Assembly (NCBI GenBank): GCA_051294905.1
Contig: CM119371.1
Coordinates: forward strand, 13,580,001-13,644,000
DNA: 64,000 nucleotides
Direction of reading: 5' to 3'
DNA from: Botryllus schlosseri
Lineage: Eukaryota
The position numbers were made by a program, and so were the translations under genes. Position 1 is the first letter of the stretch. Each line of letters starts with the position of its first letter. Below, piece after piece: positions 1 through 28,238 of this stretch. The notes under the pieces are model-generated. The model was not told the origin of the DNA, ran no database searches, and was given only the letters and a program-made list of their open reading frames with translations.

Positions 1-1699
1 TTTTATGTATACAAGTTACGGTCTCTGCAGGCTCCACATTTTACGACTTATTTTCATTAGACGCAGGCAAGCGATTCTCAAGTTCGGAGCTATACGGAAA
101 CAAATCACTGGCATGTGCGCGTTCCGAAGTCGTAATTACGATTCAGCCCTATTCATGTCACTAGAATAAGGGTAATTAAACCGACAGTGAAACGCCGCCG
201 GCGTCTTATAACGTAATAATGTAAGCTGCGTCGGGTGCTGCTATAATGTTAGGAGCGAATATAGTAGAAAGTCCACGTCTGGACACCTGTAAGCAGGTGC
301 GCATACTACCGTAGTAAAACGCATAACAGATTTCACGCGAAAGTCGATATTGCTTTGTGATGATTTTGATGTTGTTAGAGTATGTATGTTCACGAAGACT
401 GCGATATCGCACGGATAAATACATCATAACTAATTATTCACTTGAATGCGACTTGATAATAAGAGAGAGAGAGATATGATATTCTTTCTCGCCTGCACCA
501 TCGAGATGCTTTGGCGACTGAGTTGCGATACGGCCCCATGAGGTCATCTAGTCTGCGCCCCCGTTTTTTTTCTCCTCCACGCTATCCGTGATTGCTGAGC
601 GCCTAGCAGGATAACTGCAGGATAACTCGAGTCTTTGGTATGACCCGGCCGGGGATCGAACCCACGACCTACCGCTCGAGAAGCCGGACGCACAACCATT
701 ACACTATCTCGCTCGGTCCCTAGAATAATATAAAATGCGATTTTGAGTGCAGACAGATCGCGGTTTCGATTTCCGAGGTCTCCACATTTTCAGCCTTATT
801 ATCAGCTCGCAGCACAACCGCTACCTGTATAATGTTTGCATGTCGAGTATAAGGGTATTTAACTCAGCACTAAAATGCCAACGGACTAGCCGCAGGGGCC
901 CGGTTCTCGTCGCTATAATTGAACGAACACCTTCGCCGCAGGTACGCGATCCCCGACGTTATAATGATAGGGACAAATTAGCCGCATGAAAGCGAGTCTA
1001 ATGAATATAACGACTGACAACAAGTTAGTTGAAAAGTAAAACTAATCGTGACCTATGCAAGACGGCGTGAAACAGCGCTTTCGCGCGATTCTTGTAGTGA
1101 CCACATTTCATACGATTCAGTCCTTTTCATGTCACTAGAATAAGGGTAATTAAACCGACAGTGAAACGCCGCCGGCGTCTTATAACGTAATAATGTAAGC
1201 TGCGTCGGGTGCTGCTATAATGTTAGGAGCGAATATAGTAGAAAGTCCACGTCTGGACACCTGTAAGCAGGTGCGCATACTACCGTAGTAAAACGCATAA
1301 CAGAATTCATGCAAAAGTCGATATTGCTTTGTGATGATTTTGATGTTGTTCGATACCGATTGGGAAGATAGGACTCCTAATTTCCTAACTAACTACATAA
1401 TCTCTCGTTACGTAGCCAGAAGCATAACGGAATATACGCAAAATCGGTATTGCTCTGCGATAATTTTGACCACTATGTTTTGATAATAACTTGCTTCCGA
1501 GAAATAAATAACATTCAATATACGTCAGATGATACTTTTCCTTGATATTCTATTATGTGTATTTAGGGATAATGCGACATCACTATGTTGGCGACAGGCC
1601 TGATTTGAACACACTAATTTTGCGAATTAAACTTATCGCCCAACACGGACACTCAATGAAGAGCACCCTGGAGACTCACATAAATGCTCCACAATTCTT
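1..1699. repeat. Left arm of a large inverted repeat (runs off the window start)
   Basis: Reverse complement of 7594-9285. Position 1 ttttatgtatacaag pairs with cttgtatacataaaa ending at 9285, and the inner end ccacaattctt (to 1699) pairs with aagaattgtgg (from 7594). The ORF track mirrors this (206..427- vs 8796..9080+; 747..989+ vs 8304..8546-). Confidence 0.95.
462..718 (-). mobile_element. Mirror copy of the same SINE in the left arm
   Basis: Reverse complement of 8575-8840, with gggatcgaaccc (B box), ccattacacta (A box) and an (AG)n tail. Confidence 0.75.
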
Positions 1700-1734
1700 G
1701 ACATATAATATACTGAGCATATAATAAGCTGACA

Positions 1735-3125
1735 AAACCTATACTTGAGTACTCCGAAATGTACAAGTACTTTACCTTTACACGACGTTTTTGTAAAATG
1801 AATACTAATTTTAATGAAAAATAAAAATTATGTACTCAAGTAGGTTTTTGTCTACACGCACCAACTACTCAAGTGTTTATGACACAGGAATGATTCATTA
1901 AGTATAGCGCAAGCCGGCCAAACCTATATTTGAGTACTCCAAAATATACAAGTACTTCGCCATGTACTCCCTCAACGTAAAAAGTGACTAGGTTGTAGAC
2001 TACTTTATCGATTTTCGAAGTTGCGCAAATACCAACCACAAACTTTGCTTGCTTTCAGAGCTGGCAACTAAATGCAAGACAGACTTTACGCAAAAGTCTC
2101 TATTCTGAAAATTTTATCGAGTTAATAGTTTAAAAACTTATACTTGAGCACTACGAAATGTACAAGTACTTTACCTTTACACGACGTTTTTTGTAAAATG
2201 AATACTAATTTTATTGAAAAAATAAAAAAATAAAAAAGAGCGAAAAATTACATTATATCCGGAACGCAACAAGAAAAATCGTATGAATTTGTAAACTACA
2301 TATTCATGACATAATAATAATTCTACTTCTATACTTTTTCATATTTTGTAACAATTTTAGTAGTACTTAAATAAAATTCGGAATATAAACTAATCGAAAA
2401 ATTCGGTAACAAATTTCGCATAGGCTATGCATACAAATGAGGAAAGTTACATCAACGCATGTAACTAATTGCATTATGTAGCTTGTAATTCATGCAAGTG
2501 TCGAAACATCTACACTGAGTCTTTTAAAGTAGATAGAATCGAAAAAACTAATCGAAAATATTTACGAAGTTTGGACGCGACATATTTGGGTTTTTAAAAA
2601 TTATTCATACCCATGATTCCAAACACTTTTAACAAACTTATGTTTTCGACATAAGATAAGCATGAAGTGTACAAATTTCGATGTTGCGCAAATAACACAA
2701 ACTTTGCTTGCTTTCAGAGCCGGCAACTAAATGCAAGATAGACTTTACGCAAAAGTTGCTATTCTGAAAATTTTGTCAAGGTAATGGTTTAAAAACTTAT
2801 ACTTGAGCACTACGAAATGTACAAGTACTTTATCTTTACACGACGTTTTTTGTAAAATGAATACTAATTTTATTTAAAAAAAACAACGGAAAATTACATT
2901 TTATCCCGGAACGCAACAAGAAAAATCGTATGAATTTGTAAACTACTTATTCATGACATAATAATAATTCTACTTGTACACTTTTTCACATTTTATAACA
3001 CTTTAAATAGTACTTAACAGTTTCAGTTTCAAATAAAATACGGAATATAAACTAATCGAAAAATTCGGTAACCACTTTCGCGTAGGCTATGCATACAAAT
3101 GAGGAAAGTTACATCAACGCGTGTT
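1735..3125 (+). repeat. Degenerate modular direct repeats
   Basis: Motif aaac(c/t)tatacttgag(t/c)act..aaatgtacaagtactt at about 1735, 1920, 2135 and 2793. About 2010-2460 is duplicated at about 2675-3120. Confidence 0.8.
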
Positions 3126-3219
3126 GAACTAGTTGTATCGAGTTATCTAATGATTTTTTCCTTACAGCAAAACAACTAGACTGCGTAACTACATTAAAAA
3201 ACGTATCTAAATGAGCTCC

Positions 3220-5180
3220 AGGGCATTGTGATTATGCAGCATACCAAATTTCATCACACATTTCATGATGGAAAAACTTCAAAACTAACGCAGTTCTATA
3301 GCAACTTTTGCCTAAATCTGTTTTCGGTAGCATGTACATATACATAGTCAGCTTTAATAACAGAATTACCATGCTAATATATGACTCCTAACCTTGAAAC
3401 TTGGTACGTAGTTGTAGGACATTGTGATTATGCAGCATACCAAATTTCCTCATGCATTTCATAATGGAACAACTTTAATACTAACACGGCTCTACATCGA
3501 CTTTTTGCGTACATTTGTTTTGCGGGAGCGTATAGCACGTACCTATACATTGTCAACTTTAATAACGGAATTACCATGCTTAACATTGAATCCCAACTCG
3601 AAACTTGATACGTAGTTCTACGACATTATGGTAATGCACCATGCTAAATTTCATCACACATTTAATGATGGAACACCTTTAAAACTAACTCAGTCGAATA
3701 CCGACTTTTACGCATATCTGTTTTGCGTGAACATAGCATATACCTGTACATAGTCAATTTTAATAGCAGAATTACCGTGTTAAACATTGAATTCCCACCT
3801 TGAAAGTTGGTACGCGGTTATAGGACATTATAACAATGCACCACACCTAATCCCATCACACATTTCATGATGGAACAACTTTAAAACTAACGCGGCTCTA
3901 CATCGACTTTTTGCGTACATCTGTTTTGCGGGAGCGTATAGCACGTACCTATACATTGTCAACTTTAATAACGGAATTACCATGCTCAACATTGAATGCC
4001 AACTCCAAACTTGATACGTAGTTGTAGGACATTATGGTAATGCACCATGCTAAATTTCATCACACATTTAATGATGGAACACCTTTAAAACTAACGCAGT
4101 CGAATACCGACTTTTACGCATATCTGTTTTGCGTGAACATAACATATACCTATACATAGTCAATTTTAATAGCAGAATTACCGTGTTAAACATTGAATTC
4201 CCACCGTGAAAGTTGGTACGCGGTTATAGGACGTTATAACAATGCACCATACCTAATCCCATCACACATTTCATGATGGAACAACTTTAAAACTAACGCG
4301 GCTCTACATCGACTTTTTGCGTACATCTGTTTTGCGGGAGCGTATAGCACGTACCCATACATAGCCAACTTTAATTACGGAATTACCATGCTTAACATTG
4401 AATCCCAACTCGAAACTTGATACGTAGTTGTAGGACATTATGGCAATGCACCATGCTAAATTTCATCACACATCTAATGATGGAACACCTTTAAAACTAG
4501 CGCAGTCGAATTCCGACTTTTACGCATATCTGTTTTTCGTGAACATAGCATATACCCATACATAGTCAATTTTAATAACAGAATTAGCATGCTAAACATT
4601 AAATTCTCACCTTGAACGTTGGTACGCAGTTGTAGGACATAATAACAATGCACCATACCTAATTTCGTCAGACATTTCATGATGTAACACCTTTAAAACC
4701 AACGCAGTTCTATACAGACTTTTGGCCAAATCTGTTTTTCCGTAGCGTAGCACGTACCTATACATAGTCAACTTTAATAAAGGAATTACCATGTTTATAA
4801 TCGACTCCCCACCTTGAAACTCGGTACGCAGTTGTAAGACATTATGACAATGCACCATGTCAAATTTTGTTACGCATTTCATGATTGAACAACTTTAAAA
4901 CTAACGCAGTTCCATACCGACTTTTACGGGAGCGTAGCACGTACTTATGCATACTCAACTTTAATAACGGAATTACCGAGATAAACATTGAAAGCGAAAC
5001 TTGAAGATTGGTTCACAGGTGTAGGACATTATGACAATGGAACATATCAAATTTCATCACACATTTCATGATGGAACACCTTTAAACCTAACGCAGTTCT
5101 ATACCAACTTCGCGTGAATCTGTTTGCGGAAGCGTAGCACGTACCTATGCGTGAACAACTTTAGTGATGGAATTACAGAT
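3220..5180 (+). repeat. Tandem array of about 10 units of 202-204 bp with an A/B dimeric higher-order structure
   Basis: Anchor gca(c/g)ca at 3237, 3433, 3636, 3838, 4042, 4244, 4448, 4650, 4852 and about 5039. Central spacings alternate 202/204 bp, and alternate units share diagnostic variants (ctaatcccatc vs ctaaatttcatc). Confidence 0.95.
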
Positions 5181-6579
5181 GTAATTAAGTTTCAACACTT
5201 TTACAATGATTCGTCTTGCTTCCTATAACATCCCACTCGATGCCCTCGTTATTAGGCTGTAATCTCAGCCTGAGCTATGTCTTGAAGCCTACGGTACTCT
5301 GCAAATTGTTTCGATTTATTCTGTCCGTTTCAATTTAAGATAAGGAAGCCCATTTCACTCAATGTATCGATGCCTACGGTACTCTACAAAATTTTCTGAT
5401 TAATTCTCCCTATGCTCATTTATCATAAGAAAGATGATTTGACACCTAAAGTACGAAATACTTGTTCGCTTGAGCTAAGCTGCAGCGCTTGGAGTGGAAT
5501 TTTACGGGGTATGTGGACTCATTTCGTAGGGCTCTATGCCATAGGAGCATACGTTACGCTCCAATTCGATTCCCACACATTCCATATAATTACTAACAGA
5601 ACCATTGAGTACCAGCCTTGATATTTTCCGTAGTACTAGATGGCATGTATACAATTTCATGACATCCGACAGTACGACGGAGACTATCAAAATATCGAAA
5701 GAAGCCCTCTATTCTTTTCTGAAATAATCAAGGTTTTATCAGGACTAGCCTTCATATAAACTCCAGCAGAATCACTAATAACCTCTTAAGTTTACTCAAT
5801 TTACTCTAATTTGATACTCGTGTACCAAATCCTTATTCTCCGCAAGTATGATAGAGGCTATCGCTCGATACTCAACGATTCGTAATTTTGCTGGAATACA
5901 AGTACAATTAGGGATTGAAAAGTAACTGATATAGGTGGTTATGTTTGTAGGATATTTACACTTCTACCTACCGGTTTTTCAGGAGAAACTACCTACTTTT
6001 AGGACTATATATTTTAAAGTAGTTTGAGGTTACGTTTGTATCACCTTGACAAATGCTATTATCAAAAACTGCTTTTGCTAAACTCTTACACTTTCACTAA
6101 ACTTCTACACTGAATCTTGTAAAGTAGATAGAACAGGAAAACTATTAACATAAGATAGGGAGAAGCACGCAAATTTCGATGGCATAAAAATGCCACAAAC
6201 TGCGCTAACTTTCAGAGTTGTTAAGTATAGTACTCGTACTTCTTGAGAATACCCAAGTAGGTTTTTTGCCTACATGCACCAAATACTCTCAAGTCCTTTT
6301 GATATTGGAGTACACCAACTTCATGATAGCTAGAGTATTAAACAGAAATAGACCTAGAGTACTAACGTTTTACTTACTCGGAAATGATTACTTCTATCTA
6401 ATTTTAAAGGATACCTCGTTCGAAGCGAAATTTTATGTGGTTTTGGATAATATCCAAGATGTTGGCTCACTTTGAAGGGTACTTCGTAAAACTCAAATAT
6501 TGCGCACTGAGAGTTCGCAAATTCTTGAAGTATTTCTGTTATTTTTATTGCGATAAGTCATTCTGCGGCGCGAAAATGC

Positions 6580-7590
6580 GTCGTAGGATATAGATGAAAC
6601 TAGCACCACTCATCGAGACAGCTGAAAACAGTACATTTCAACATTTAGTAGCAGTAAATTTCTAGTAAAGTACAAGAAGTGATGATTTCCGAGTGAGTTA
6701 AAAAGTAAGTATTGCAGGTATAGTTTACCCGAAAACCGAATACTCTGAAATAGAAGTAGATGCAGTGTAAATAGTTAATCACTTGATTAAGTATAGTGCA
6801 AGCAGATAAAACCTATACTTGAGTACTGCAAAATGCACGAGTACTTCGCTATCGACTCCCTCCACGTAATACGTGACTACGGTTTAAGACTGCTTTTACC
6901 GATACTCGTCGGTTTCAGTTTTAGATAGAATTCGGAAACCAAATAATTTCAAAAACATAAGCTAATTAAATGAATTAACTCGAATGTACTCTGCCGCGCT
7001 TATAAGATTAATTATAATATACTTATCATGTTACAGCGATTTTTCTAGCGTAGAAAATCTTTAAAATGTAGTAAGCAAGCCAATATGAAGATATTCGTTG
7101 AGCTGAATAAACATAAAAAATACTCTAGACTACTTTATCGGTACTTTACAGTTTCAGTTTTAGATAAAATTTGTCTCTTTCACCTATAATTACAACTCCT
7201 CGCTATCTAAACATGTTTAGAATATATTATTTGCGATGATACGAACCCGTAAAGTACTCAAGTAGCTTTTCGTAGGATATAGATGAAACTGACACCACTC
7301 ACCAAGACCACTGGTCCACTGAAAAAAGTACATTGTAGCAGTAAAGTCCTACTAAAGTACATGAAGTAATGATTTCCGAGTGAGTTAAAAAGTAAGTATT
7401 GAAGGTATAGTTTGGTCGAAGACCGAAAATCTCTGAAATAGAAGTAGATGCAGTGTAAATAGTTAATCACTTCATTAAGTATAGCGCAAGCAGGCCAAAC
7501 CTATACTTGAGTACTCCAAAATGTACAAGTGCTTCGCTATGTTCTCCCTCCACGTAAAAAGTGACTAGGTTTTAGACTACTTTATCGGTA
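6580..7590 (+). repeat. Direct duplication of a ~330-bp module (about 6580-6905 and 7270-7590)
   Basis: cgtaggatatagatgaaact...gatttccgagtgagttaaaaagtaagtattg...acctatacttgagtact occurs twice. Its 3' part also matches about 1895-2010. Confidence 0.85.
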
Positions 7591-7593
7591 TCT

Positions 7594-9285
7594 AAGAATT
7601 GTGGAGCATTTATGTGAGTCTCCAGGGTGCTCTTCATTGAGTGTCCGTGTTGGGCGATAAGTTTAATTCGCAAAATTAGTGTGTTCAAATCAGGCCTGTC
7701 GCCAACATAGTGATGTCGCATTATCCCTAAATACACATAATAGAATATCAAGGAAAAGTATCATCTGACGTATATTGAATGTTATTTATTTCTCGGAAGC
7801 AAGTTATTATCAAAACATAGTGGTCAAAATTATCGCAGAGCAATACCGATTTTGCGTATATTCCGTTATGCTTCTGGCTACGTAACGAGAGATTATGTAG
7901 TTAGTTAGGAAATTAGGAGTCCTATCTTCCCAATCGGTATCGAACAACATCAAAATCATCACAAAGCAATATCGACTTTTGCATGAATTCTGTTATGCGT
8001 TTTACTACGGTAGTATGCGCACCTGCTTACAGGTGTCCAGACGTGGACTTTCTACTATATTCGCTCCTAACATTATAGCAGCACCCGACGCAGCTTACAT
8101 TATTACGTTATAAGACGCCGGCGGCGTTTCACTGTCGGTTTAATTACCCTTATTCTAGTGACATGAAAAGGACTGAATCGTATGAAATGTGGTCACTACA
8201 AGAATCGCGCGAAAGCGCTGTTTCACGCCGTCTTGCATAGGTCACGATTAGTTTTACTTTTCAACTAACTTGTTGTCAGTCGTTATATTCATTAGACTCG
8301 CTTTCATGCGGCTAATTTGTCCCTATCATTATAACGTCGGGGATCGCGTACCTGCGGCGAAGGTGTTCGTTCAATTATAGCGACGAGAACCGGGCCCCTG
8401 CGGCTAGTCCGTTGGCATTTTAGTGCTGAGTTAAATACCCTTATACTCGACATGCAAACATTATACAGGTAGCGGTTGTGCTGCGAGCTGATAATAAGGC
8501 TGAAAATGTGGAGACCTCGGAAATCTAAACCGCGATCTGTCTGCACTCAAAATCGCATTTTATATTATTCTAGGGACCGAGCGAGATAGTGTAATGGTTG
8601 TGCGTCCGGCTTCTCGAGCGGTAGGTCGTGGGTTCGATCCCCGGCCGGGTCATACCAAAGACTCGAAAAATGGTATCCGCAGTTATCCTGCTAGGCGCTC
8701 AGCAATCACGGATAGCGTGGAGGAGAAAAAAAACGGGGGCGCAGACTAGATGACCTCATGGGGCCGTATCGCAACTCCGTCGCCGAAGCATCTCGATGGT
8801 GCAGGCGAGAAAGAATATCATATCTCTCTCTCTCTCTCTCTTATTATCAAGTCAAGTTATGATGTATTTATCCGTGCGATATCGCAGTCTTCGTGAACAT
8901 ACATACTCTAACAACATCAAAATCATCACAAAGCAATATCGACTTTCGCGTGAAATCTGTTATGCGTTTTACTACGGTAGTATGCGCACCTGCTTACAGG
9001 TGTCCAGACGTGGACTTTCTACTATATTCGCTCCTAACATTATAGCAGCACCCGACGCAGCTTACATTATTACGTTATAAGACGCCGGCGGCGTTTCACT
9101 GTCGGTTTAATTACCCTTATTCTAGTGACATGAATAGGGCTGAATCGTAATTACGACTTCGGAACGCGCACATGCCAGTGATTTGTTTCCGTATAGCTCC
9201 GAACTTGAGAATCGCTTGCCTGCGTCTAATGAAAATAAGTCGTAAAATGTGGAGCCTGCAGAGACCGTAACTTGTATACATAAAA
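7594..9285. repeat. Right arm of the large inverted repeat (may extend further right)
   Basis: Near-identical reverse complement of 1-1699, with only a few substitutions and two small indel/replacement differences seen. Confidence 0.95.
8575..8840 (+). mobile_element. tRNA-derived SINE, probably with a Meta-SINE-like central domain
   Basis: Pol III A box TAGTGTAATGG (8587-8597) and B box GGTTCGATCCC (8631-8641). These are followed by GGTCATACCAAAGAC...AAAAATGGTA...CCTGCTAGGCGCTCAGCA, which resembles the Meta-SINE domain as I recall it (not aligned), and a (CT)n tail. Confidence 0.75.
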
Positions 9286-10066
9286 TCAAGTTTAAAAATA
9301 TGAACGGATGAGTTATCTCTGAGCAATAGAGTAATATACCCGCCTATAGTTTAGTGGGGTATTGCTATAATGTACATCAAAACAATCGTTACAGACTCTG
9401 AATGTTACCAAGGTCATTATCACAAAAAATCATGCAGCAGAAGCGCTGGGATTATTATTATCAAGTCGCAGCGCTCAAAATCGCATTTTTTAATAATTAA
9501 TTAGTGATGATGTGTAGAATTTTGATATATCATCCTAAAACCACACCTAGTTCAGCGTTGTTCATAATATCCGTGAAAATTCAAAGTCCTAAATACACAT
9601 AATAATAATATCTGGCGAATATAGCCTTGTATGGACATCATAGTTTTTCGTTATCATGACAATAACTGAATTCCGTTAGCAAAGTGTTATTGCAGATATA
9701 AATACGCACATAAATCAATTGAATTCAAATTCACATTCACAAAAACGTGTTATCTGAGAGCTCATATTATCCGCCAAAATATAAAGTCCTAAATACACAT
9801 AATAATATTATCCGGAGAATAAAGCCTTGCATAGACATCATAGTTTTCGCACCACTGAATCACAAGGTGTCGCTTTGGCGGGCGCCAAACGATACCCATC
9901 CTACTACTTCGCATTTTTGGAGAAAGGCGGATCCTTTTGAGTAAAACCTTCTCTCCCTTTCCTAGGAGCCCTAGTCATTTTTGAATCCGCATGGATGCTA
10001 AAAGATTCAAAGAATTTTATTCCAAGCCACAAAGCCTATGCAAAATCATTTAACTTGCGTTGATGG

Positions 10067-11838
10067 CAGGGCTGTGGAGTCGGTAAATTTTACCACCGAC
10101 TCCGGCTCTGACTCCGACTCCACATATTTTCAATATACCGACTACGACTCCGACTGCAACAGTATAACCAATTTACTTCGAAAATTATATGCCACGGTGA
10201 CGGTTAAATGATTATCATATAAACAATAAACAAATGCAAACATCTGATTAACGGTGGCATGCAAAATTGTTTCATTGTGGCACCGCTCGAATTATTCACC
10301 ATGCAATTAACGTGAAGGAGTACCTTTCTAAATATTCTTCCACTTTTTCATGTATAAGTTTTTGCCACATGGACTCTCTAATATCGCAATATGTATGAAT
10401 CATTCAAACATGGCATATATCCAATCCGGTCTAATTGAAATGTAAATAAAAACCGAAGTGTATGTGGTGTGTATGAGTCAGCAACTAAACTGACTAATTT
10501 TCTCATTACACGCTATACTGATTACAAGGACTGCACTCTTACTTTACTACTAATAGACATTGGTCATTAAGGAAATTTAGGAAGTAGTCAAAGAGCATAG
10601 CCTATGTCTAGTCTATATGTACCTACTCAAGTATTCAAGGACTTGGATTTGCAGTCTTTCTTAATCATTTGTTCGACCTAAGCAGCTAAGCTACACTACA
10701 AATATTTTTAATTATGTCAAGTGAGAAGCATTGTTTGGTTATATTTACATCGATTTTAAAATTTAACAAAAGCAGCGGATGTATTTGCTCTATGATGGTA
10801 GTCTATAATTCCAAAAATGAACCAATTTGCGACTGCATCTTGAAGATGCATATTGTGATATTCTAACTGAATTGTAATTTGCAAATAATATCTAATTTTA
10901 TGTATACCAAGGGTGACCAACCTTTTCGACCAAAGGGACACGATTTATGAATCATTGCGCGGGCAACTAAAATGTTGATAACCTTTTCGTAGTTGTCCGA
11001 TAGGAGCGAACCGAATTAGGTAGCATTGCAAACAAGACTTCTAATACTACTCTTTGACATTGATAACAATTATGTCATGCAACTGTGTATAGTGTGCAGT
11101 CATGCCCTGGTAGCGCTATTTCAAAGGTAATGAATGAATTCTATCAATGAAGAAGTTATTTACATATATTGGGGGGGGGGGTCGTATCTGTATACCACTG
11201 GGCTGATTTGGCAAGGACAGGATTATTCGGCGTTTTATTATAGCAATATCGACGGTTTCGGTGAACATGCCTCTATCATTTTGTGCAAATTTTCCGTCGC
11301 CGACGATCTCGCTGCGAGCGCACAAGCGAAGTCGCATATTGGACGACACGTTATCTCGTAATTGCGAATATATTTTGACTCAATTCTGTGAATAGAGCGT
11401 GTTTATAATTTGCAGGAGGGGGCTCCAATACTAAAAAGCAAGAAATCTAATGACAATAAATCATGTAAAGTGCTGAGAAAAATTTCAAGTCAAATAAATA
11501 TGCTACGAAATGTTCTACTTTATGGTCAATGGTCATATACGAAGATCTGCGATAAATGTGGCTGGCCCCTGGTTACGCCAATACGTCAGAACTGATGTTT
11601 TAGTCATCATCAAATTTTGCGGCCTGGCTTATCAAACTTTGGTTGGCCGAAGTCGGAGTCGGAGTCGGAGTCAGGGTCATTTTCACAAACTCTGACTCCG
11701 ACTCCAACCAGTATTTTTTCCACGGCTCCGACTCCGGCTCCGACTCCAGCCACTATGGTGTTCACGACTCCGACTCCGCATCCATCAAACGAAAATTAGC
11801 AAAACTCCGACTCTAACTCCACCGACCCCATAGCTCTG
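10067..11838. mobile_element. Non-autonomous hAT-like element with (GACTCC)n subterminal arrays
   Basis: Termini cagggctgtggagtcgg / ccgaccccatagctctg. 8-bp TSD gttgatgg at 10059-10066 and 11839-11846. Confidence 0.9.
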
Positions 11839-12434
11839 GTTGATGGACGACGCTACGTCGCGAATCAGCTCCGTCATGAGGCCTGCTATCACTGTGATCT
11901 TCGTCATGATTCGAATCTTCGAACGTACCGCTGTTTGAAGTTACACTGAAACATCTGAATCATTGCTCGTGTAGCTGATAGCCGATATTATGATTATATT
12001 TCTTGCCAAATCCTGTAGTTTGCATTAAAATTGTCCTTTGATGATTGCCTTCCAAGTTAGATAAATGAGGAAAGCATCCATTTCGATCGATACCCGTGCC
12101 TTTTGCTCAAGCTCAATAATTCATTTGAACCTTTGGGTAGGCCTATGTAACTTATTATATGATCAGTGTGTCGCCGTGTGTATTCCTGACACGTATGGCT
12201 AAGCAATACGGCTAAAGTCGTGAAAAGTTGAGGATATATAGGCTGTATCCTGTAAAGAAAAACTTGACGTGAATGAAGCATTTTTGAGATCAGTACACCA
12301 AAATTAGCCAAAATCAAGTGAAAAATCAGAACCAACAATTTTGTCATTCAAAAAATTGTTCCCCAGTAATGTAATGTTCACCAGGCGATTTATAGTTTAT
12401 ATCATAGTGACAAAAACAAGGCATGAGTGAAACG

Positions 12435-12674: not shown

Positions 12675-12982
12675 ACGACTTGGCATCCAAAGCCGCATAT
12701 CTCCTCCAAAGTTTCAAGGACCAATTAAAGGAAGTTCTACCTCCAGCTGAAAAACTGGATCTTTTGACGTCCCTGCAAGAGGCTGACGATTTTGATGTTA
12801 TGAAAGATTATGCGACAGATCTCGACCTATCGCACAAGGCCATTACATCCGCCTCAATGAGCATGTTATGTTCGTTGATTGGAAGATGCAGTACCATGAA
12901 ATCACTTACTCTCCGTAATTGCGGTATCGACAAGGATCTATTACTCGTTCTGGCCAATAGAACAGGGGATCTGCATATTAAG
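12675..12982 (+). CDS. NLR-like/LRR gene, first exon visible in the window (post-NACHT helical segment plus first LRRs)
   Basis: acag| acceptor (phase 1) and AAG|gtaacg donor (phase 0). Encodes ...AEKLDLLTSLQEADD...TDLDLSHKAITSASMSMLCSLIGRCSTMKSLTLRNCGIDKDLLLVL..., an RI-like LRR preceded by an LxLLxxLxE motif like that after the NACHT domain of NLRs. No NACHT domain is present in the window. Confidence 0.75.
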
Positions 12983-13386: not shown

Positions 13387-14385
13387 TAGGGATGGTGTGA
13401 ACCTCTGAAAGGTTCAGGTTCGTGTGAACGCGAACCTTTTTGAAAGGTTCTGTGTGAACACGAACGTGAACCTCGTGACGTCACGTGACGTCATATTGCT
13501 AATTCCAACCCTATCTTCCAATGAAGTGATAGCCTATATTAATGTACACGATATCTAGCGAAGACTGGTCCACATAATGTCACAATGCTGAAGTACAAAT
13601 CGGCGTTTTAAACGTCGCTAAATGTATCAACAGCGGTAATCAAAGGATATAATAATTGCGTAAAATCAATACATTCCGTCGATTTGCCAACAATTTCGAC
13701 GAGGACTTACCAAGGAATATAAGCTTACGCCTTAACGGTCTTAGCCAGACCAGACAATGTGTTCGGAGTCTGAGTATTGCTACATTGATATGGAGCAGAG
13801 TGTACAACGGGTTTCAATACTCGCTACCGATACCACAAACAACAACAAGTTATGCAGCAGTAGCAAGCACCTTAATCGCACGGATTTGGTTTTAATGATA
13901 CAGTAAAGATATGAAGTCAAGATTGACCCCGTACGCCCGTTCGATTTTTTACATCAGAAGACGATATCAATGTCATTGATTGGTTGAATAAGCATCATTC
14001 GCTGACTACGTATATCGCTCGTGATGTTGTGTGATTGCGGGTCAAGCTCACAGCAGATAGTCACTAAATATTCACAAACGGAAAGCTGGTTATTCCGAGA
14101 AAATTTTTGCAACAAAGCAACAAAAACTTTTAAGGTTGTCGAGGTGCATGGTGCATGCTCGTTAAGCGTTGATTTTTTATGCTGCCGCAGCACCATGCAT
14201 GGAGTGGCCCGCAGTTGAAATGCAATAAATTTGAGCCAAAGATCTTATAATGGAGTGAAAATTACAATTTACCAAAAGGTTCACAGTGCAGAACCTACCA
14301 AGGTTCTGTTGTGAACACGAACCTCTAAATTTCCGAGGTTCACACACAGAACGCGAACGTGAACCTCACGTTCACACCATCCCTA
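13387..14385. mobile_element. hAT-like MITE, GTGAAC family, copy 1
   Basis: TIR tagggatggtgtgaac / gttcacaccatcccta. TSD ctaaatat at 13379-13386 and 14386-14393. Confidence 0.95.
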
Positions 14386-16117: not shown

Positions 16118-16146
16118 AAATAGACAGAAACCTTCGATAGTTTTCA

Positions 16147-16282
16147 GAGCCGGAGCCGGAGCTGGAGCCGGAGCAGTGATAATAATGCGGCGCCGGAGCT
16201 GGAGCCGGAGCTATTGTATGATAGAAGAAAGCTCCGGAGCCGGAGCTGGAGCAATGCAAATTTACGACTGCTCCAAAGCCCT
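16147..16282. repeat. (GGAGCC)n array, right end of another hAT-like element
   Basis: Repeated ggagcc/ggagct ending in ctccaaagccctg. Confidence 0.7.
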
Positions 16283-18515
16283 GCCCACAACAGGTCAACA
16301 CGATCGACTTGACATCTCAGACTTTGAATACGACAACGTAAAAGACTGCAATACCTTATCCACGGCGGATATCAGATTCAAGCTCTTGAACAATCGCTCA
16401 CTTACACTTATGCATTTCGATATTGTTTCACTTTCCAGCCATTATGATGACTTTAGTGACATCATCTTCCAGTTGGACTCAATCCGCAGTATCATTGGTA
16501 TCTCTGAAACCAGACTGCCAGAGTGTCCCCCAACCAATATAGACCTCGATGGGTACTCATTTTTTCCCTCCCCATCTCCCCCCAGAGCAGGGGGTGTAGC
16601 CTTATATATCAAAACCTATTTACGATCCTATATAGTGGATTCTTATAAGTTGAATATTCCTGGCACTGACCAAGTATGGGTCGAAATTGACTCTGCTATA
16701 ACCAGTGGCCACAGCATCATAGTAGCAGTAATCTATCGACATCCCAAGTCATCTAGAACAGACTTTGTCATGGCTCTTGATCAATCTATCAGGAAGTTAT
16801 GCGCTGATAAGAAAACATTTTTCATCCTTGGGGATATAAATATCAACATTCTATCCCAATCTGCTTTTGAAAAAGACTATTCATTCATGCTAAACTCGCT
16901 AGGCACTGTTCCTATTATTACGCAGCCCACTCGTGTGACACACCATTCTGCTACTCTTATAGATCATATTTACACTAATCTCGATTCATATACAATATTT
17001 CCTTATGTTATGGAAAATGACCTCACTGATCATTACCCACTTGTTGCTGAAGTTCTAGTTAAATCGCCTGCAACTAATGCCACCAAGGTGTATAGAAGAT
17101 TCCCAACACTTGAATCGCGAGACTCACTGTTGCACGATGCATTTGACAAATTTGATAATGATAACTTTACCCCCTCTCGAGACACAACTTCAATGAGCAT
17201 ATTGCATTTGATAAATGAGCACATTCCTCTTCAAAAATTGTCACGAAGGCAGCGAAAGCTGCAATTTAAACCATGGATTACTTATGGCATCGTACGCTCT
17301 ATTAAAAAGAGAAATCTCTTGCATAAAACATGGTCCCTGAGTGGAACTGAGGGTGATAGAAAAAACATCAGTCATATGCCAATAAATTGAATCACATCAA
17401 ATCAAAAGCAAAGGAGTCATATTATATGAATTGCTTCAGCAATCATTATGGAGATCAAAGGCAAACTTGGCGTTTGATCAAACAGTTAATTAATGTAAAA
17501 CGTACTAATACAAATTTTCCACTTAATATCATCAAAGACGATGGCACCAAGATTAGTGACCCTTGGAGTATCTCACAATCACTCAATGAACATTTTGTTT
17601 CCATATGTGACAAGTTGGCCTCTTCTTGTGCCAATTACACTGATATATCCCCAGTGGCTTACTGCAGGTCAAGCTTAGATTACTTTTTTATAACTGACAC
17701 AAGTGAGGAAGAGATCTATGAAATAGTTAGAGATATAAAAACGGGAAAGGCTGAGGGTCATGATAGAATTTCTACCGAATTACTAAAAACTCTCATTCCT
17801 GCAATTGGGCCCACATTAGCGTATTATTGCAACCAATGTGTAGAATTGGCCATTTTCCCAGCTGCTTTAAAAATAGCCAAAATTACTCCTGTTCACAAAT
17901 CCAGAGCTAAAACTGACATGAATAATTTCAGGCCTATCTCAGTCCTTCCGTGTATTGCTATTTTATTTGAGAAACTCATCTATAAAAGAATGGTGACATT
18001 CTTTGAACGAAATCCCCTGATATCGAGCAGCCAATTTGGCTTTCGACACAACACCAACACAAATCAAGCCATCACTGATCTCATTACTAAACTCTAGGCT
18101 CTAACGATGTCTGCTGCAGTATATTTTTAGATTTGAAAAAAGCTTTTGACACGGTCAACCATTCTTTATTGCTTGAAAAATTACAGCGTTACGGTATAAG
18201 AGGTAAATCTCTGGAACGATTTCGTTCCTATCTTTCAAACCGCTTACAGTACATTGACCATCACATGACGTCTTCCTTTCAATAATCGAGACCGGTGTTC
18301 CCCAAGGCTCAACTTTAGGTCCAATTCTTTTTATAATGTACATCAATGATCTGCCAAATGCATCAAAGTTCCACACGACTCTCTTTGCAGACGATACGTG
18401 CTTATTTTCCCGCGATTCTGACCTAGCTTCTCTCCAGCATACAGTCCACTCTGAAATGGAAAACATTATCACTTGGATGAATGTCAACAAACTAGTAATT
18501 AGGGATGGTGTGAAC

Positions 18516-20065
18516 CAGAGTTGGATCAATTACATTATTTCAGTTCAATTACAATTACAATTACAATTACTTTCATGAATGTTTCAATTACATTACAATT
18601 ACAATTACTCCATGCTAAAAATATCAAATTACAATTACAATTACAATTACTCCTTGCATGCTTCAATTACATTACAATTACAATTACAATTGCTGCTGTT
18701 GAACATGTAATTGAATAATCATAAATTCAACCGTGCTCCTTGACAACCGTAGCGTCGTATTTAGCAACAATTCAAGTCTAGTTCAGATTGTGTAGTAATA
18801 AATGCGTTTATGTGCGTACATAGTATGCTATGTAAGATGTCATTGTGACGTAATATAAGCGTGTTTTGTATGCTCGGTAATTATGGCTCACGTAATTGGA
18901 AATGTAAAATGTTATTTACCTAATTTTCTATGGGTTAGGATTAAGGATAGGGTGCAGTATGTCGTTGAAAAAGTATTATAATATATGCACGTGTTGGATT
19001 TGCGTATATAGCATATAATTAAAGAAATAATATTATTTTTATCGAGGGACGTAGGAATTAGGATGAGGGGTAAAAACAAAACCGTGCTTTGTCAGATAAG
19101 ACGTTGGTCTGGTTAGTTAGCCAGACGAAATAACGATGCAGCATCGTGATCTGAAATCGTATTGTGGATTGCCAACCCACGGATAGATGCGCAAAATGTG
19201 AGTCACGGATGAATGCACCGACAAACGTACCGCAGAGCCGGCTAGAAGCAGCAAACTTTGTAGTCCTAGAGCTGGCGATCCATGCGTCCAAATTTGATGC
19301 ATCTGGTCTTTATCGTAATCTATTGATGTACTAATTCCGAAAATACAAAATAAAATCTCGTCAGGGCAATGTAACTGCTCCAAAATAGCCGTTTAAGGCC
19401 GACTGTTCTGAAAAGTGAGAGCGCTGCAGCAGCATGACCACAACAATTACCAATTATGCCCAGCGATTGTTCAGAACAATGCCGATTCCCAGACTTTCAC
19501 GACTATTTTGGGATGGTGCCATTGCCTGGAAATATACTTTTATTGCGGAATCAGTGCGACACTGGCTTTCGATTAGGAACATACATATCAAATTTCGACG
19601 TTTGGATCGCCAGCTATGGTACTATCAATTCTGCTGCTTTTAGCCGGCTCAGCAGTTGGCTTTTCGGCGTATTCAATCGTGAGCCACGTGTTGCGAATCC
19701 ATCCGTTGGTTAGTAATCTAAGAATTGTATACAATGGCAGCCGAGGCCAGCATAGCGGTAAAAATAAAAAAAACTTCGCCCGAAAGGGCGCAGTCAAGGG
19801 CTTCCGCGAATGGATCCACCAAATTCCTTGTCGACATTTAAAGAGAATGCATTATAAGTCAATTATTTTATGTTGTGCTTGTCCGGTCTCAATAGCAATT
19901 TAATGTAATTGAAATTGTAATTGAGCAAATTTTTTGTCAAATTACAATTACAATTACAATTACACAAAATAAAAATGCTTCAATTACAATTACATTACAA
20001 TTACATTGAAAAATGTAATTACTTACATTCAATTACAATTACAAATTACAATTGATCCAACTCTG
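18516..20065. mobile_element. hAT-like element with (ATTACA)n arrays, nested at the left TIR of GTGAAC copy 2
   Basis: TIR cagagttggatcaatt / aattgatccaactctg. TSD gtgtgaac at 18508-18515 and 20066-20073. Confidence 0.95.
19170..19720. mobile_element. Long-TIR (foldback-type) MITE of the TATAGATAACTAACC family, nested
   Basis: aacccacggatagatgcgca...ctggcgatcca...aaatttgat (19174-19298) is inverted at about 19588-19710, ending ggttagtaatcta. Related to 46492-47074. Confidence 0.7.
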
Positions 20066-22293
20066 GTGTGAACCTCTGAAAGGTCCAGGTTCGTGTGAAC
20101 GCGAACCTTTTTGAAAGGTTCTGTGTAAACCCGAACTTGAACCTCATGACGTCACGTGACGTCATATTGCTACTTTCAACTCTACATTTCAGTGAAGTAA
20201 ATAGCCTATATTAATGAACAGTGTACAGTACATGATACCTAGCGACGACTCGCGCCACATAATGTCACAATGCTTAAGTACATATTGACGTTTTAAACGT
20301 CGCCAAATCATTGCTACGTTGATATCGATCAGAATGTAAAACGGGTTTTGTATTTGGTACCGACATCACCCCATTAACAAGTGATACAGCAGTAGCCAAC
20401 AACCCAACCGCACGGATTTTGTTTTTATGACGATTAACTTATGAAGTCAAGATTGACCCAGTACGCCTGCTAGATTTTTTACATCAGAAAACGATATCAA
20501 TTTCATCAATTGGCTGAATAAGCATCATTCGCTGACTACAGCAGTGAGTCACTAAATATTCACAAACGGAAAGCTGGATATTTCGTACAAATTTTTGTAA
20601 CAAAGCAAGTAAAATTTTTGAGATTGTCAAGGTGCATGCTCGTTGTTGTGGATTTTTTACGCTGCCAGGGCCATGCAATGAATGTCGTACAAAGATGTTA
20701 TAATGAAGTGAAAATTGTAATATATGAAATAGGTTCACAGTGCAGAACCTATTAAGGTTCGTTTGTGAACGTGAACCTCTCAATTTCTGAGGTTCACACA
20801 CAGAACGCGAGTGTGAGCCTCACGTTCATACCATCCCTACTAGTAATAAACCCTTCCAAAACTCAGCTGTTGATTAGCAACAATAAGGCCCCGCCCACAC
20901 ACACGCCCACTTTTGCAATAACTATGCATGGCGTCACTGTGAAACCAACCGCCACTGTGAAATATCTAGGGATACACATTGAAAATGATATGTCTTGGAG
21001 ATCCCATATCGAATTGTTAGTGTCGAAAGTTTCTCGTTCTTGTGGTGTGCTGTCACGGGTTTCTCGTTTACTTCCCAGATCAGTTCTAAGAACTCTATAC
21101 TTTTCCATAATTCATCCTCACCTGTTATATGCTATTATTTTTTGGGCACAACTTTCAAAACGTACTTGCATGCCTTATCAGTGCAACAAAATAGAGCCAT
21201 GCGCTCAATATGCCGTCTAGGGCCACGGGATAGTGTTCAGCAAGCATACAGATCCCTCAACATAATAACAGTTCCTAAAATGTGCTCTTTATAAATCGCA
21301 AAGTGGATGCATAGATACCATAATGACAATATTTCCGATGCATTGTTAGGCCTATTTCTTCTCCAAAAAGACGTCCATATTTATAATACCAGGTCTGCTT
21401 CTTCTAACAACTACTTTATCCCACGTGTGTCTTCAATGGCTCAAAGATCCATTGTCTTTTTAGGACCAAAACTATGGTGTGAGATTTCAACTGAATTAAA
21501 AAATATGTCATTTAACGAATTTAAATATCATTATAAAAAGCAGCTCTGGCAATCATAACCTGATCGCTATTGTTTAGTTTCTTCATTCTCATACCATTGA
21601 GAGTTTGGTACCGTTTGTACTGTTTACTTGTTATTTTACCAACTGTTTAGTTACTACTTGTTATTATATAGCTAGATTGACAGCATTGATATGCCCAATC
21701 ATTAATTATAGATATACATATTATATGGGTTATGTGTAATTGGTATTGCATGTTGGCCTATATATGACTGTCTGTTTAATGTATGAGGTGACCAGCTGAC
21801 TTGAAGACCGAATGGTCGTATCGCTGGCCACCATTTCATAGCATTACTTTCTTACACCTGGAAATAAACTTCTGTCTGTCTGTCTCTCTGTCCCCTGCAA
21901 TAGTGGCCGGATGAAATCGTCGGGCGCTTCACTACATTTTATACGTCAACATCCACAAACTAAGGAACTATTTCAGTAGTGACACAAGTTCAGTATTTGG
22001 GTATTCATTTTATCCGTTTGATATAGGCATCTGGTATCTGGTCGTGCCGGCGCGAACAATTGTTGAAGTTCACGAGTAAATTCCGTCAGAAGTATTGGTT
22101 CGTAGATATGTTCCTACTAAATTTTTATCATTTCTGTGTCACGTGATCATCAGAGTTAGCGGTAAAGTGGTGGTGGTGGTCATGACTTCGAAAATGCATG
22201 CACGTGATTGTACATCACTAAGTTTTGTTCATTTCACACGGATAAGACTATTTATGATCCTAAATGCCGGTCCGCACCAGTACGTTGCTTATC

Positions 22294-22813: not shown

Positions 22814-22930
22814 ATTGAGGAACTCGATCTCAGAGGTAACATATATTGGACTGATCTTGATGTTTGGAAACGTGGACTACGACATCTGGAGATCGCTACG
22901 TTGGTCATCGATGCCCCCTGCGACGAACAG
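22814..22930 (+). CDS. NLR-like/LRR gene exon (phase 0-0)
   Basis: aaag|ATT...CAG|gtatag, 117 nt. Encodes IEELDLRGNIYWTDLDVWKRGLRHLEIATLVIDAPCDEQ, a canonical LxxLxLxxN LRR. Confidence 0.8.
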
Positions 22931-22996: not shown

Positions 22997-23143
22997 AACC
23001 AGACTACTGCCGAACATCTCCTCCGTGTGTTAGATGCATCAAAGCCTTCGGTTAGGCATTTCATCATTGACCAAATCAAGAGCATTCGATTGGATATCAA
23101 AGACGTTGAATCACTCAGCAAGTTTGATTTGAGTCAGACATGG
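22997..23143 (+). CDS. NLR-like/LRR gene exon (phase 0-0); alternative acceptor possible at 23003
   Basis: Follows a 66-nt intron. tttag|AACCAG...TGG|gtacgc, encoding NQTTAEHLLRVLDASKPSVRHFIIDQIKSIRLDIKDVESLSKFDLSQTW. Confidence 0.65.
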
Positions 23144-23619: not shown

Positions 23620-23854
23620 ATCAACCATCTCTCGGTAAAACCTGACGTCTAGACATTTCATATTGACATTTGGCGAAAAGCATTTGATGATATTTCATTT
23701 AATGTGTCTCATTGCCTAGTCGAGCAGCCAAAACAACACGTAATATCAAAGAAATAGCATCGCAATGAGAAATATATAACCATTCACTTCCACATATACC
23801 AAAATGGGAAGATCGATGTGAAAAGTTGGACCGATGCAGCAAAAGCTACTAATG
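23620..23854 (+). pseudogene. Dead paralogous exon (homologous to exon 35640-35972)
   Basis: tttcag| acceptor, then INHLSVKPDV*TFHIDIWRKAFDDISFNVSHCLVEQPKQHVISKK*HRNEKYITIHFHIYQNGKIDVKSWTDAAKATN. In-frame TAGs at 23650 and 23755; truncated by a hAT terminus at 23855. Confidence 0.7.
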
Positions 23855-26362
23855 CAGTGGTTCCCAACCTTTTTCGTCTCATGGGCCTCTTGGCCGATAT
23901 TTGAGCTAAAATTCCCCCCCACGAAAAAGTTGCCTGTGACTAAAAAAGGTGCTTTTTAACGCAAAACCATTTGTTGACTGAGCAATTAATGGCGAAACAT
24001 ATTCAGATATGTCTGAACTATATCGAATGCGAATCGCACTACACTTTGGTAAAGTATACAGTCAAATGTGACCTGTTTTTTACTGGTCAGGTAGCCGCTG
24101 AAGAAATATAAATCACCAAGTCGGCTTGCTATGGCCTTCAGTTGAATCGATGAATTTGGTATGTTTTTCAAGTTAGCTCATATGTTCGCTTAAAAAGTTT
24201 AAGAATTTCACCAGCGGCCTTGTGCTGAATTCGGCTCAACTTTTTCCTGCTTAGTAGCAGGGTTGTAATGACTCGAGTCATGACTCGACTTGAGTCAGAC
24301 TCGTGTAACGATTTTCTGATGACTCGACTTGACTCTGGTCATTCTGTCAAAATGCGGAAATGACTTGACTCGACTTGAACTCGAGCCATTGCGCATCACT
24401 CGAACCAAGTCATATGACTCGAGACTCAGACGGCTAAGACCGACATTTCATTATAATTTCGGAAAACAGTAAAGTAACCTCGCTTTTGAGATTGCGTCTA
24501 TTGGTACTGGTACTTTAAAATGCGACCAGAAACTGTTTAAAGTGAGAAAATTTAGTATATTATAAATGCGAACCATTCGATATCATCAAACAGAGTTATA
24601 AAAGTGGGTCTAACAAAACTTTAACTCAGTGGTTCCCAACCGAGAGAATTCCCCCCTTGGGGGGAATTTTGAATTTTTTAGGGGGGAATCTGGCTTTTTA
24701 TCGGAAGATACACTGGGTTCGCAAGTCGTTTACATTTTTATGGTATAGAACTGTTAAGTTGAAATTAGTTCTTCACAACTGTACGTTTCTTTGGCGGATT
24801 TTAAGATAGGTGTATGTTACACCGATACCTGATACACCCCCTGATAAAGTGAGGCTCGCGAGACGATTTCGTCGGGCCCGCGACCACTTCTGGACCAAAT
24901 TGCTACTAAGCAGGGTTCAACCAAGTCACAAAGCTCTGAGTCACAAGTCAACATCACTTTATAGTTGTGACTCATCAAGTCAAGTCGAATCATTTTCAAT
25001 TCACCACCGAGTCCAGTCCGAGTCCAAGTCATCGAGCAGATGATCGAGTCCAAGTCATGGTATTATGAATCTAGTCCGAGTCCACGTCATTGTGTTGACT
25101 GCTCAGTTTTCAGTTAAAGCAGTGGTTCCCAACCTTTTTCGTCTCATGGCCCCCTTGGCCGATATTTGAGCTAAAATTCCCCCCCCCCCCACGAAAAAGT
25201 TGCCAGTGACTAGAAAAGGTGCTTTTTAACGCAAACCATTTGTTGACCGAGCAATTAATGGCGAAACATATTCAGATATGTCTGAACTATATCGAATGCG
25301 AATCGCCCTACACCTTGGTAAAGTATACAGTCAAATGTGACCTGTTTTTTAGTGGTCAGGTAGCCGCTGAAGAAATATAAATCACCAAGTCCGCTTGCTA
25401 TGGCCTTCAGTTGAATCGATGAATTTGGTATGTTTTTCACGTTAGCTCATATGTTGGCTTAAAAAGTTAAAGAATTTCACCAGCGGCCTTGTGCTGAATT
25501 CGGCTTCACTTTTTCCTGCTTAATAGCAGGATTGTAATGACTCGAGTCATGACTCGACTTGAGTCAGACTCGTGTAACGATTTTCTGATGACTCGACTTG
25601 ACTCTGGTCATTTTGTCAAAATGCGGAAATGACTCGACTCGACTTGAACTCGAGCCATTGCGCATGAATCGAGACTCAGTCGGCCAACACCGACATTTCA
25701 TTATAATTTCGGAAAACAGTAAAGTAACCTCCCTTTTGGGATTGTGTCTATTGGTACTGGTACTTCAAAATGCGACCAGAAACTGTTTAAAGTGAGAAAA
25801 TTAGTATATTATAAATGCGAACCATTCGATATCATCAAACAGAGTTATAAAAGTGGGTCTAACAAGACTTTAACTGGAAACTGAGCAGTCAACACAATGA
25901 CGCGGACTCAGACTCTAGTCATAATAGCATGACTTGGACTCGATCATCTGCTCGATGACTTGGACTCGGACTTGACTCGGTGGTGAATTGAAAATGATTC
26001 GACTTGACTTGATGAGTCACAACTATAAAGTGATGTTGACTTGGGACTCAGCGCTTTGTGACTTGGTTAAACCCTGCTTAGTATCAATTTGGTCCAGAGG
26101 TGGTCGCGGGCCCAACGAAATCGTCTCGTGAGCCTCACTTTATCAGGGGGCGTAACAGGTATCGGTGTAACATACACCTATCTTTAAATCCGCCAAAGAA
26201 ACGTACAATTGTGAAGAACTAATTTCAACTTAACAGTTCTATACCATAAAAATGTAAAAACCTTGCGAACCTAGTGTATCTTCCGATAAAAAGCCAGATT
26301 CCCCCCTAAAAAATTCAAAATTCTCCCCAAGGGGGGAATTCACCCCCGGTTGGGAACCACTG
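23855..26362. mobile_element. Rearranged tandem pair of a composite hAT element (A, B-inverted, A, B)
   Basis: cagtggttcccaacc at 23855, 24627 and 25120; ggttgggaaccactg ending 26362. 23855-24626 matches 25120-25875 directly, and 24627-25119 is the reverse complement of 25868-26362. Contains a nested GACTC-array element with TSD cttagtag. Confidence 0.9.
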
Positions 26363-27067: not shown

Positions 27068-28238
27068 CAGAGGTCTCAAACACGCGGCCCGCGGGCCTCA
27101 TGCGGCCCGCCAGAGCATTTTGTGCGGCCCGCGACGACATTTCAGATTTTTATTAATTTGACAATATATAAGTGTCACATATCTTTTCAGGTTGTAAAGT
27201 GAAAATTCCCTCTTAAATTGCTCCGAAAGCTTACATTATTCATCAAACTTCACTTTCACATCAATTGCAAACGCTACCATGCAGTGGAAGATTCACTATT
27301 TCGCCACATTTCCAATTCATGAATTCTTGAGTTTGTGAGTTGGACTTGGACGCGACCTTTCTTAGAATTACTCAGACTCGGGCTAACTCGATGGCAAAAT
27401 GAAAATGACTCGAGTGGACTTGGAGTGACTCAGAATGCCGTGAATTTGTTAGAACCATGGACGCAACAAACTAATCGCGTATCAGGGGAATAGTAATAGA
27501 TCAGAAGGTCGCAGCTTGGTATTTTGCTAGCTAAGCAAGTACTTATGGCAACCATTGGCAATTTGTTGTTACATCTTGGGTCGCTAAACCATGTCATTAA
27601 GGCCACTTAAAGGTGCCGAGTACCGTAGTGGTACGCTCCAACGATGTAATAGCAATGGGCCGTTCGGAGTTCCGACATTTCAATCACTAGGACACATTCA
27701 TTAATATATTTATATTATATTTATATTTTTTTCTGCTCCTATATTTGAAGATATTTGGCCATGAGATTAATAGCCTACTCAGAAGTATACCCGAATCCTG
27801 GATTGGAATTACAATGCTCAACTTAAAAATGTTTTGATATCAGATTAGTCTATATTATTAATCTGTTAAATTCAAAATATTCATAGTAGCTGAAAAATTA
27901 GAACCCGATAGCTTTTATGATCGCATCATACATTTGTCCACACATATGGTGTCTATATCTTATAATTAATGTACATCAAGTAAGCCTACAACAACAATTA
28001 TATTCAAATAGTTATAAATGTGATGATTCTTCTCGTGCCAGGCGTAAATTGATACAGGAGTAAATCACATTTTGACGAAGAGTGTTTACTGTCAGTCTGC
28101 TGGATCGGCTCACTAATAATCGGCTACTAATAAGGCCTACTTGGAAAGACATTAGAATACCCCTATAAATGCTGCGGCCCGCGGCGTCGTCAAAACTGGA
28201 AAACTGGCCCGCGAGCACATTTGAGTTTGAGACCTCTG
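27068..28238. mobile_element. hAT (Charlie/Buster-like) non-autonomous element inserted in the LINE RNase H
   Basis: TIR cagaggtctcaaac / gtttgagacctctg. TSD gcttagac at 27060-27067 and 28239-28246. Removing it restores SDSLSALDAI. Confidence 0.95.

Follow-up and report, generated by a model that had tools for sequence, protein, structure and literature searches.

A lopsided inverted-repeat element with copied arms and a candidate Maverick/Polinton-type end in Botryllus schlosseri

Results

I analysed a stretch of 64,000 nucleotides of Botryllus schlosseri DNA (GenBank assembly GCA_051294905.1, contig CM119371.1, positions 13,580,001 to 13,644,000 of the forward strand), which is called the window below and whose first letter is position 1. 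The window opens with a repetitive element composed of a left arm, a modular spacer, and an inverted right arm; both arms carry the same short interspersed element (SINE), and an internal exon of an NLR-like gene follows on the plus strand. It was found that sequence was copied between the arms after the SINE and several rare mutations had arisen. The element has a candidate right end of Maverick/Polinton type, and its lopsided shape may tentatively be traced to the loss of inner sequence from one arm of a giant palindrome.

Inverted arms and a one-directional spacer

By blastn, positions 1-1699 match the minus strand of 9285-7594 with 98.24% identity over 1707 columns. The near-identical inverted arms that a sequence-only reading had noticed are thus real, and the element has long terminal inverted repeats of at least 1.7 kb at 98.2% identity. 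That reading had placed the whole structure at 1..9285; the inverted structure stands, but 9285 merely mirrors the edge of the window, and the likely true end is 9908. The visible portion of the left, short arm (minus strand) occupies 1-1699, and about 615 bp more are predicted further left from a right end at 9908. The right paired arm (plus strand, 7594 to the candidate end at 9908, 2315 bp) is the outer portion of an 8.2-kb one-directional run that starts at 1700. Each arm holds a 243-bp internal duplication (137-379/1111-1353 and 7940-8182/8907-9149, 97.5% identity). Both this duplication and the SINE at the same place in each arm (left ~462-720, right 8573-8840) were seen as had been described.

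The differences between the arms are few. There are three clean substitutions (left 512, 519, and 767), a net loss of 17 bp from the right arm relative to left 432-448, a short replacement within the SINE at left 619-626, and an AG/CT tail of the SINE that is six bases longer in the right arm, the last being a microsatellite length change. The arms do not differ at all over left 1-431 and 768-1699 (932 bp). By eye, two of the differences have the look of repair scars: the one at 619-626 is an 11-bp tandem copy in place of adjacent SINE sequence, and the deletion at 432-454 is explicable as two short microhomology deletions.

The spacer (1700-7593, plus strand) is 5894 bp long, modular, and non-coding, with no stop-free frame longer than 95 codons, much as it had first been characterized; in addition it is repeat-family DNA and not unique sequence, as depth over 5200-7593 indicates (see below). 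It begins with an AT-rich module block (1700-3140, plus strand) containing a 2013-2474/2676-3138 duplication (86% identity). A tandem array of ~202-bp units follows (3220-5176, plus strand), in which alternate units are more alike, giving a higher-order period of 406 bp, and a ~60-bp motif of the unit is shared with the arm modules in the right-arm orientation. A second AT-rich block (6080-7590, plus strand), of high depth and directly similar to the first, contains another duplication (6581-6896/7270-7583, 83%). Within 1700-9908, a run of 8209 bp, all similarities of at least 33/50 are direct and none is inverted; the exceptions to this polarity are an old inverted pair of 64% identity (6229-6411/7347-7533) and an 11-bp motif that occurs in both orientations (see below). 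Since its long modules point the same way as the right arm, the spacer probably represents inner sequence of one 8.2-kb arm that has lost its pairing partner. The predicted paired arms measure 2.3 kb and the spacer 5.9 kb; the resulting half-length of 8.2 kb would be compatible with a loss on one side.

An imperfect 21-bp stem with a loop of ~80 nt (1731-1852, no strand assigned) adjoins the left junction. Its DNA fold (z -3.14) was the strongest among 29 windows and was beaten by 1 of 200 shuffles; an 11-bp motif of the stem also recurs elsewhere in both orientations, with 10 forward and 6 reversed occurrences in all. This stem may be a leftover of the palindrome centre.

Arm and spacer belong to a high-copy family

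Contigs of three public DNA runs from three studies (X1, X6, and X14), together with one RNA run, were placed on positions 5200-12400. Over 5200-9537, excluding the SINE and the bin 8815-9055, the depth was 4 × 10^4 to 1 × 10^5 in X1, 1.5 × 10^4 to 5.8 × 10^4 in X6, and 72-504 in X14, while the baseline at 11948-12188 was 20.5, 38, and 0, respectively. When X6 values were taken from one or a few contigs, the depth was ~7000, or ~170-190 times a baseline of a single bin. Both the arm and the tested spacer region (5200-7593) have a high copy number, of the order of 100-200, and the depth lies far above that of the unique flank in all three runs, as expected of a dispersed repeat. The remainder of the spacer, 1700-5199, probably belongs to the same family, judging from its likeness to the depth-tested modules and from an X14 loose end that matches 1773-1802 at 29/30. 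Since repeat-family DNA makes up both the arm and the tested part of the spacer, the earlier suggestion of a one-off palindromic segmental duplication of host DNA is unsupported.

Scans of viral contigs gave 0, 0, 11, and 0 loci, and the 11 matched across 16-21 bases only. Scans of metagenome contigs gave 0 and 3 loci, the three being chance matches.

The SINE and arm-to-arm copying

The SINE (8573-8840 on the plus strand in the right arm, and its mirror at 462-720 on the minus strand in the left arm) is of tRNA type and belongs to an abundant family transcribed from its 5′ end. The depth peaks at 8574-8814, 78 X1 contigs carry unrelated 5′ flanks at 8576, and 770 reads of the RNA run have an adapter-like loose end at 8573, which is the 5′ end of the SINE. 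High copy number, many unrelated flanks, a transcript start at the 5′ end, and a simple-repeat tail are all present; the tRNA-like head was judged by eye. ARAGORN found no tRNA, and Rfam found no family in the element; a mir-3817 match (E 0.056, far under the cut-off) fell on an adjacent repeat. The SINE may resemble MetaSINE, which is reported to be defined by a 66-bp Meta domain (PMC4824008).

In RNA run X23, abundant short transcripts of the SINE family begin at 8573, and 2386 reads cease matching at ~8662. This suggests that the expressed SINE form differs beyond the tRNA-like head. The AG repeat at 462 was considered as an (AG)3 Maverick end and rejected; it is the tail of the SINE, and both arms extend beyond it.

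Could the SINE have inserted into the two arms independently? This is unlikely, since the arm copies are far closer to each other than is typical of the family: they are ~1-2% apart, while 3235 of 5750 RNA reads are only 90-95% alike. A joint linking 8572 with 9448 (depth 2064 in X6, 25 in X14, and 28 in X1; the shorter side has only 23 letters) is probably a SINE-free site in other copies, because 9448-9470 resembles the sequence following the SINE.

Point differences tell the same story. A table of alleles listed 40 of 415 differing places between the window and the runs. At the five listed differences in 7594-9285, more than 90% of the depth lies on the other allele in all three DNA runs, and the left arm carries the rare allele of the present copy at all five. 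At two places, 7767 and 7859, the X1 non-family depth is 5.8 and 14 (against 122,735 and 52,568), which is near the single-locus level. Outside the SINE, the arms differ by 1 substitution in 1415 bases, where independent drift predicts at least 10 (P ~5 × 10^-4). Since the five rare alleles are common to both arms, sequence was copied from arm to arm after the SINE and the rare mutations arose. The view that the arms were copied or homogenised after the SINE inserted, put forward from the sequence alone, is borne out by the high copy number, the probable SINE-free allele elsewhere, and these shared alleles.

A candidate right end

Arm-type modules persist to ~9866, and run contigs connect this part with modules further in, as in a joint from 9849 to 7812. 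Just beyond, the minus strand at 9901-9908 reads AGTAGTAG, which includes (AGT)2 and extends this Maverick-type motif to 8 bp; a weak hairpin (z -1.85) lies just inside. (AGT)2 is reported as the commonest Maverick end motif in vertebrates (PMC8097293). Within the candidate zone of 781 bp, the motif would turn up by chance with a probability of 0.002-0.018 as the 8-mer, and of 0.06-0.19 as the published 6-mer. If 9908 is the end, the arms would be 2315 bp long, the element 10,524 bp, and its left end would lie about 615 bp beyond the window. From the length of Maverick target-site duplications, a 6-bp duplication TCGCAT is predicted at 9909-9914 (plus strand), with its partner outside the window.

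A separate high-copy repeat lies at 10067-~11850. It has imperfect inverted ends and 112 X1 contigs with unrelated left flanks at 10067, and it looks like a miniature inverted-repeat transposable element with a nested insert.

Coding capacity and classification

The longest frame of the element has 108 codons and no Pfam match. Among the 36 frames of at least 55 codons, 20 were scanned (mirror and near-duplicate frames being omitted), and none was above the cut-off in Pfam or PHROGs; the same scans found no transposase within the element. Accordingly, no protein-primed polymerase, integrase, ATPase, protease, or capsid gene of the Maverick type was detected. Despite a Maverick-type end and long repeats, the element, in which no such genes were found, is not a Maverick itself, but it may be a dependant of one.

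The resemblance to Maverick/Polinton elements lies in the candidate (AGT)2//(ACT)2 end motif, seen at the right end at 9901-9908 (the left end is outside the window) and read there as the (ACT)2 right-end form, and in the long terminal inverted repeats (PMC8097293). In contrast to those elements, no core genes were found here, the predicted 2.3-kb repeats exceed the reported vertebrate maximum of 1,447 bp, and the predicted size of 10.5 kb compares with 12.7-24.6 kb (PMC8097293). Butterfly Polintons are comparable in having repeats of ~2 kb, inserted transposons, and forms that lack polB; however, their repeats are reported to hold capsid and protease genes, whereas the present element is wholly non-coding (10.1101/2025.02.07.637071).

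The element also has the long modular arms, tandem sub-repeats, and non-coding middle of a classical foldback. Tetris and Galileo, foldbacks of Drosophila, likewise have long arms built of modules and a middle without coding sequence, with tandem units of ~200 bp and copying between the arms (PMC4079207, PMC3573991). Tetris, in contrast, is described with 8-10-bp target-site duplications and an affinity to Mutator, while the present element has a Maverick-like end motif and a middle resembling an unpaired arm (PMC4079207). The sequence-only reading of a giant non-autonomous foldback-type element with arm correction was partly borne out: a non-autonomous mobile element with copied arms is supported, but the end looks Maverick/Polinton-like and not like that of a classical foldback. 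Among the 5-25 best matches listed per search of the open-access literature, none described Polinton satellites that are palindromic and without genes, or lopsided forms of them, which is weak evidence of their absence.

The neighbouring NLR-like gene and other repeats

The exon at 12675-12982 (plus strand) encodes part of the region after the NACHT domain of an NLR-like protein, and a HMMER search found 35 homologues at E ≤ 0.001. When 10 of the 35 were scanned, three carried NACHT and a fourth an NLRC4 helical domain; the exon match lies past NACHT in P0033 and P0034. A word-index protein search with the exon found no match, whereas the HMMER search did. NLR-like exons 3′ of the structure, as had been proposed, are thus supported for 12675-12982. 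In a tblastn search of the window, the only match was this exon, and a NACHT exon was not detected. For this reason, and because the exon acceptor lies in mid-codon, the element probably sits in an upstream intron of an NLR-like gene that starts further left. Exon-like plus-strand stretches follow the exon at 22814-22930, ~22997-23123, and from ~23622 onward, the first of which is an LRR-like piece of 39 residues.

In the RNA run, of which ~6% was read and which was placed on 5200-12400, short of the exon at 12675-12982, the depth on arm and spacer outside the SINE was 0-4.3 per strand. There was no sign of abundant double-stranded RNA, and the suggestion from the sequence alone that the arms, if transcribed within an intron, would form it found no support in this one run. 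The same run, taken without matched DNA, showed A>G at 21 and T>C at 27 places against G>A at 41 and C>T at 22; there was no excess of A>G and no sign of editing.

Other repeats are scattered over the window. Broken LINE-like elements, with endonuclease- and reverse-transcriptase-like frames by eye, lie at 16119-21540 and 28152-34092, the first being split by nested repeats. An intact frame of 763 codons (61150-63441) has the look of a DNA transposase by eye and gave no Pfam match above the cut-off. A dispersed repeat of ~950 bp occurs in four copies (13387-14385, 20064-20842, 36680-37639, and 54749-55655) at 71-85% identity. A rearranged repeat of the form A-B-A′-B(reversed) consists of 23850-24626 with a direct copy at 25115-25875 (93%) and 24627-25119 with an inverted copy at 25868-26362 (94%).

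Discussion

The readings that give this element a Maverick-type end are, taken together, quite likely to include the right one. Among them, the best explanation, held with rather less than even confidence, is that this is a copy of an abundant element with Maverick/Polinton-type ends and no genes, and that it was a near-perfect giant palindrome (~2 × 8 kb) until the left arm lost its inner ~5.9 kb after insertion. Such a history would run as follows. The SINE and the rare point mutations would have entered one arm of an ancestral copy; other copies appear to be without them. The arms, which were copied one from the other, would have been made alike most simply by re-making the element from one self-folded strand in helper-driven, protein-primed replication. 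The integrase of a helper Polinton, on which the element would depend, would then have inserted it into the NLR-like intron. A break at the palindrome centre followed by one-sided resection would have kept 2.3 kb of the left arm and left the inner right arm as the spacer. The arms have since accumulated a handful of differences.

The replication mode of Maverick/Polinton elements is not known to have been directly demonstrated. A panhandle model has been described for Polintons and casposons (PMC4046053). One-sided deletions that break the central symmetry are reported as the usual fate of long palindromes, and a 15.4-kb transgene palindrome is described as rearranging mostly by deletions of this kind, though small ones (PMC8701086). 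Breakage at a palindrome centre (PMC8701086) and asymmetric snapback genomes of adeno-associated virus (AAV; PMC10924063) likewise produce, by one-sided loss or copy-back, an inverted repeat with an arm-derived spacer; they are mechanistic analogues only.

The depth of the arm relative to the spacer bears on the shape of the family, since a ratio of 2 is expected if the family is shaped like the present copy and a ratio of 1 if it is palindromic. In hand-picked values from one or a few contigs, the ratio was 1.11-1.14 in X6 (5 against 5 values) and 1.30-1.37 in X14 (9 against 12 values), nearer to 1 than to 2.

Several points weigh against the palindrome. The three longest X14 contigs per region gave a ratio of ~1.6, and bin means computed by hand gave 1.1-1.5. 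Summed depth does not give a copy number, the values were picked by hand, and the kind of the X6 library is unrecorded. The depth covers 5200-7593 of the spacer, while 1700-5199 and the 1699/1700 junction lie outside it. At the candidate end, no loose end at 9908 was among the 24 listed of ~3200 rows, the depth drops across 9538-10019, and the motif was sought on prior expectation and not blindly. The left end and the partner of the target-site duplication lie outside the window, and no full-length copy or helper was seen in the window or in the run contigs. Moreover, all six arm differences are packed into 327 bp in and near the SINE (P 0.0014; 0.024 if counted as four events; post hoc), which simple drift after a single copying event does not predict. 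The clustering could be explained by later conversion elsewhere in the arms or by exchange with other SINE copies, and for this reason the divergence of the arms is no clean clock.

A different route to the same shape starts from the same family. In a single step outside the chromosome, the polymerase would have followed one long arm as far as the centre and, after a template switch, copied just the outer 2.3 kb on the way back; this product would then have been integrated. The lopsided form would then be an integrated copy-back defective genome of a gene-less Polinton satellite re-made from one strand, and such asymmetric products with 2.3-kb arms would themselves be mobile. One event would account for the common SINE, the common rare alleles, and the one-directional spacer, and among the named classes of genome in AAV preparations are asymmetric snapback genomes (PMC10924063). 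On the other hand, no second copy with the 1699/1700 junction was seen, the junction has no obvious homology, and a single copy cannot separate this route from a chromosomal deletion. I regard it as possible but unlikely.

A little less likely still is that the family is normally built in this way, as a non-autonomous Polinton-type element with terminal repeats of ~2.3 kb around a non-coding core of 5.9 kb, with panhandle replication or gene conversion keeping the repeats alike. The arm depth exceeding the spacer depth (up to 1.6 in X14), the ~2-kb terminal repeats of butterfly Polintons (10.1101/2025.02.07.637071), and the panhandle model for Polintons and casposons (PMC4046053) would suit it. 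The X6 ratio of 1.1 would not; nor would the spacer itself, which is composed of arm-type modules in one direction, and there is neither a step in depth at 7594 nor a loose end there among the 24 listed of ~3200.

If the end motif were a chance occurrence, the element might be a classical foldback of the Mutator or P type, of the FB, Tetris, or Galileo kind, with modular arms that gene conversion has made alike. Conversion tracts would suit the clustering of the arm differences, Tetris is described as having long arms of modules, internal tandem units of ~200 bp, and a middle that does not code (PMC4079207), and Galileo is reported to lengthen its repeats by copying internal sequence (PMC3573991). 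The 8-bp Maverick-type motif, however, lies where the modules end, for which the chance is that given above (0.002-0.018), and the idea seems improbable.

An assembly artefact, in which a full palindrome or two alleles were misjoined at 1699/1700, is slightly more improbable. Long palindromes are reported to be hard to sequence (PMC8701086), no listed contig spans the stretch, and the left junction lies outside the contig data. Against this, the arms carry different, independent changes, and X1 has the right flank without differences (11730-12284) as well as the rare arm alleles at low depth. Least likely of all, and very doubtful, is a one-off chromosomal inverted duplication in which the end of an isolated repeat fragment was doubled: it would likewise place the SINE and the rare alleles in both arms, but it must begin at the terminus of the element itself, and the DNA involved is all repeat family with no host sequence.

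Being a single derivative copy, the element carries moderate weight on its own. A SINE and rare mutations that are absent from most of the family and yet present in both arms are sequence evidence of arm-to-arm copying. As for the lopsided shape, whether copies share the junction would distinguish a chromosomal break at the centre from copy-back replication. If the copy-back route were true, the element would be a DNA counterpart of the defective-interfering genomes of viruses, kept in the germ line of an animal.

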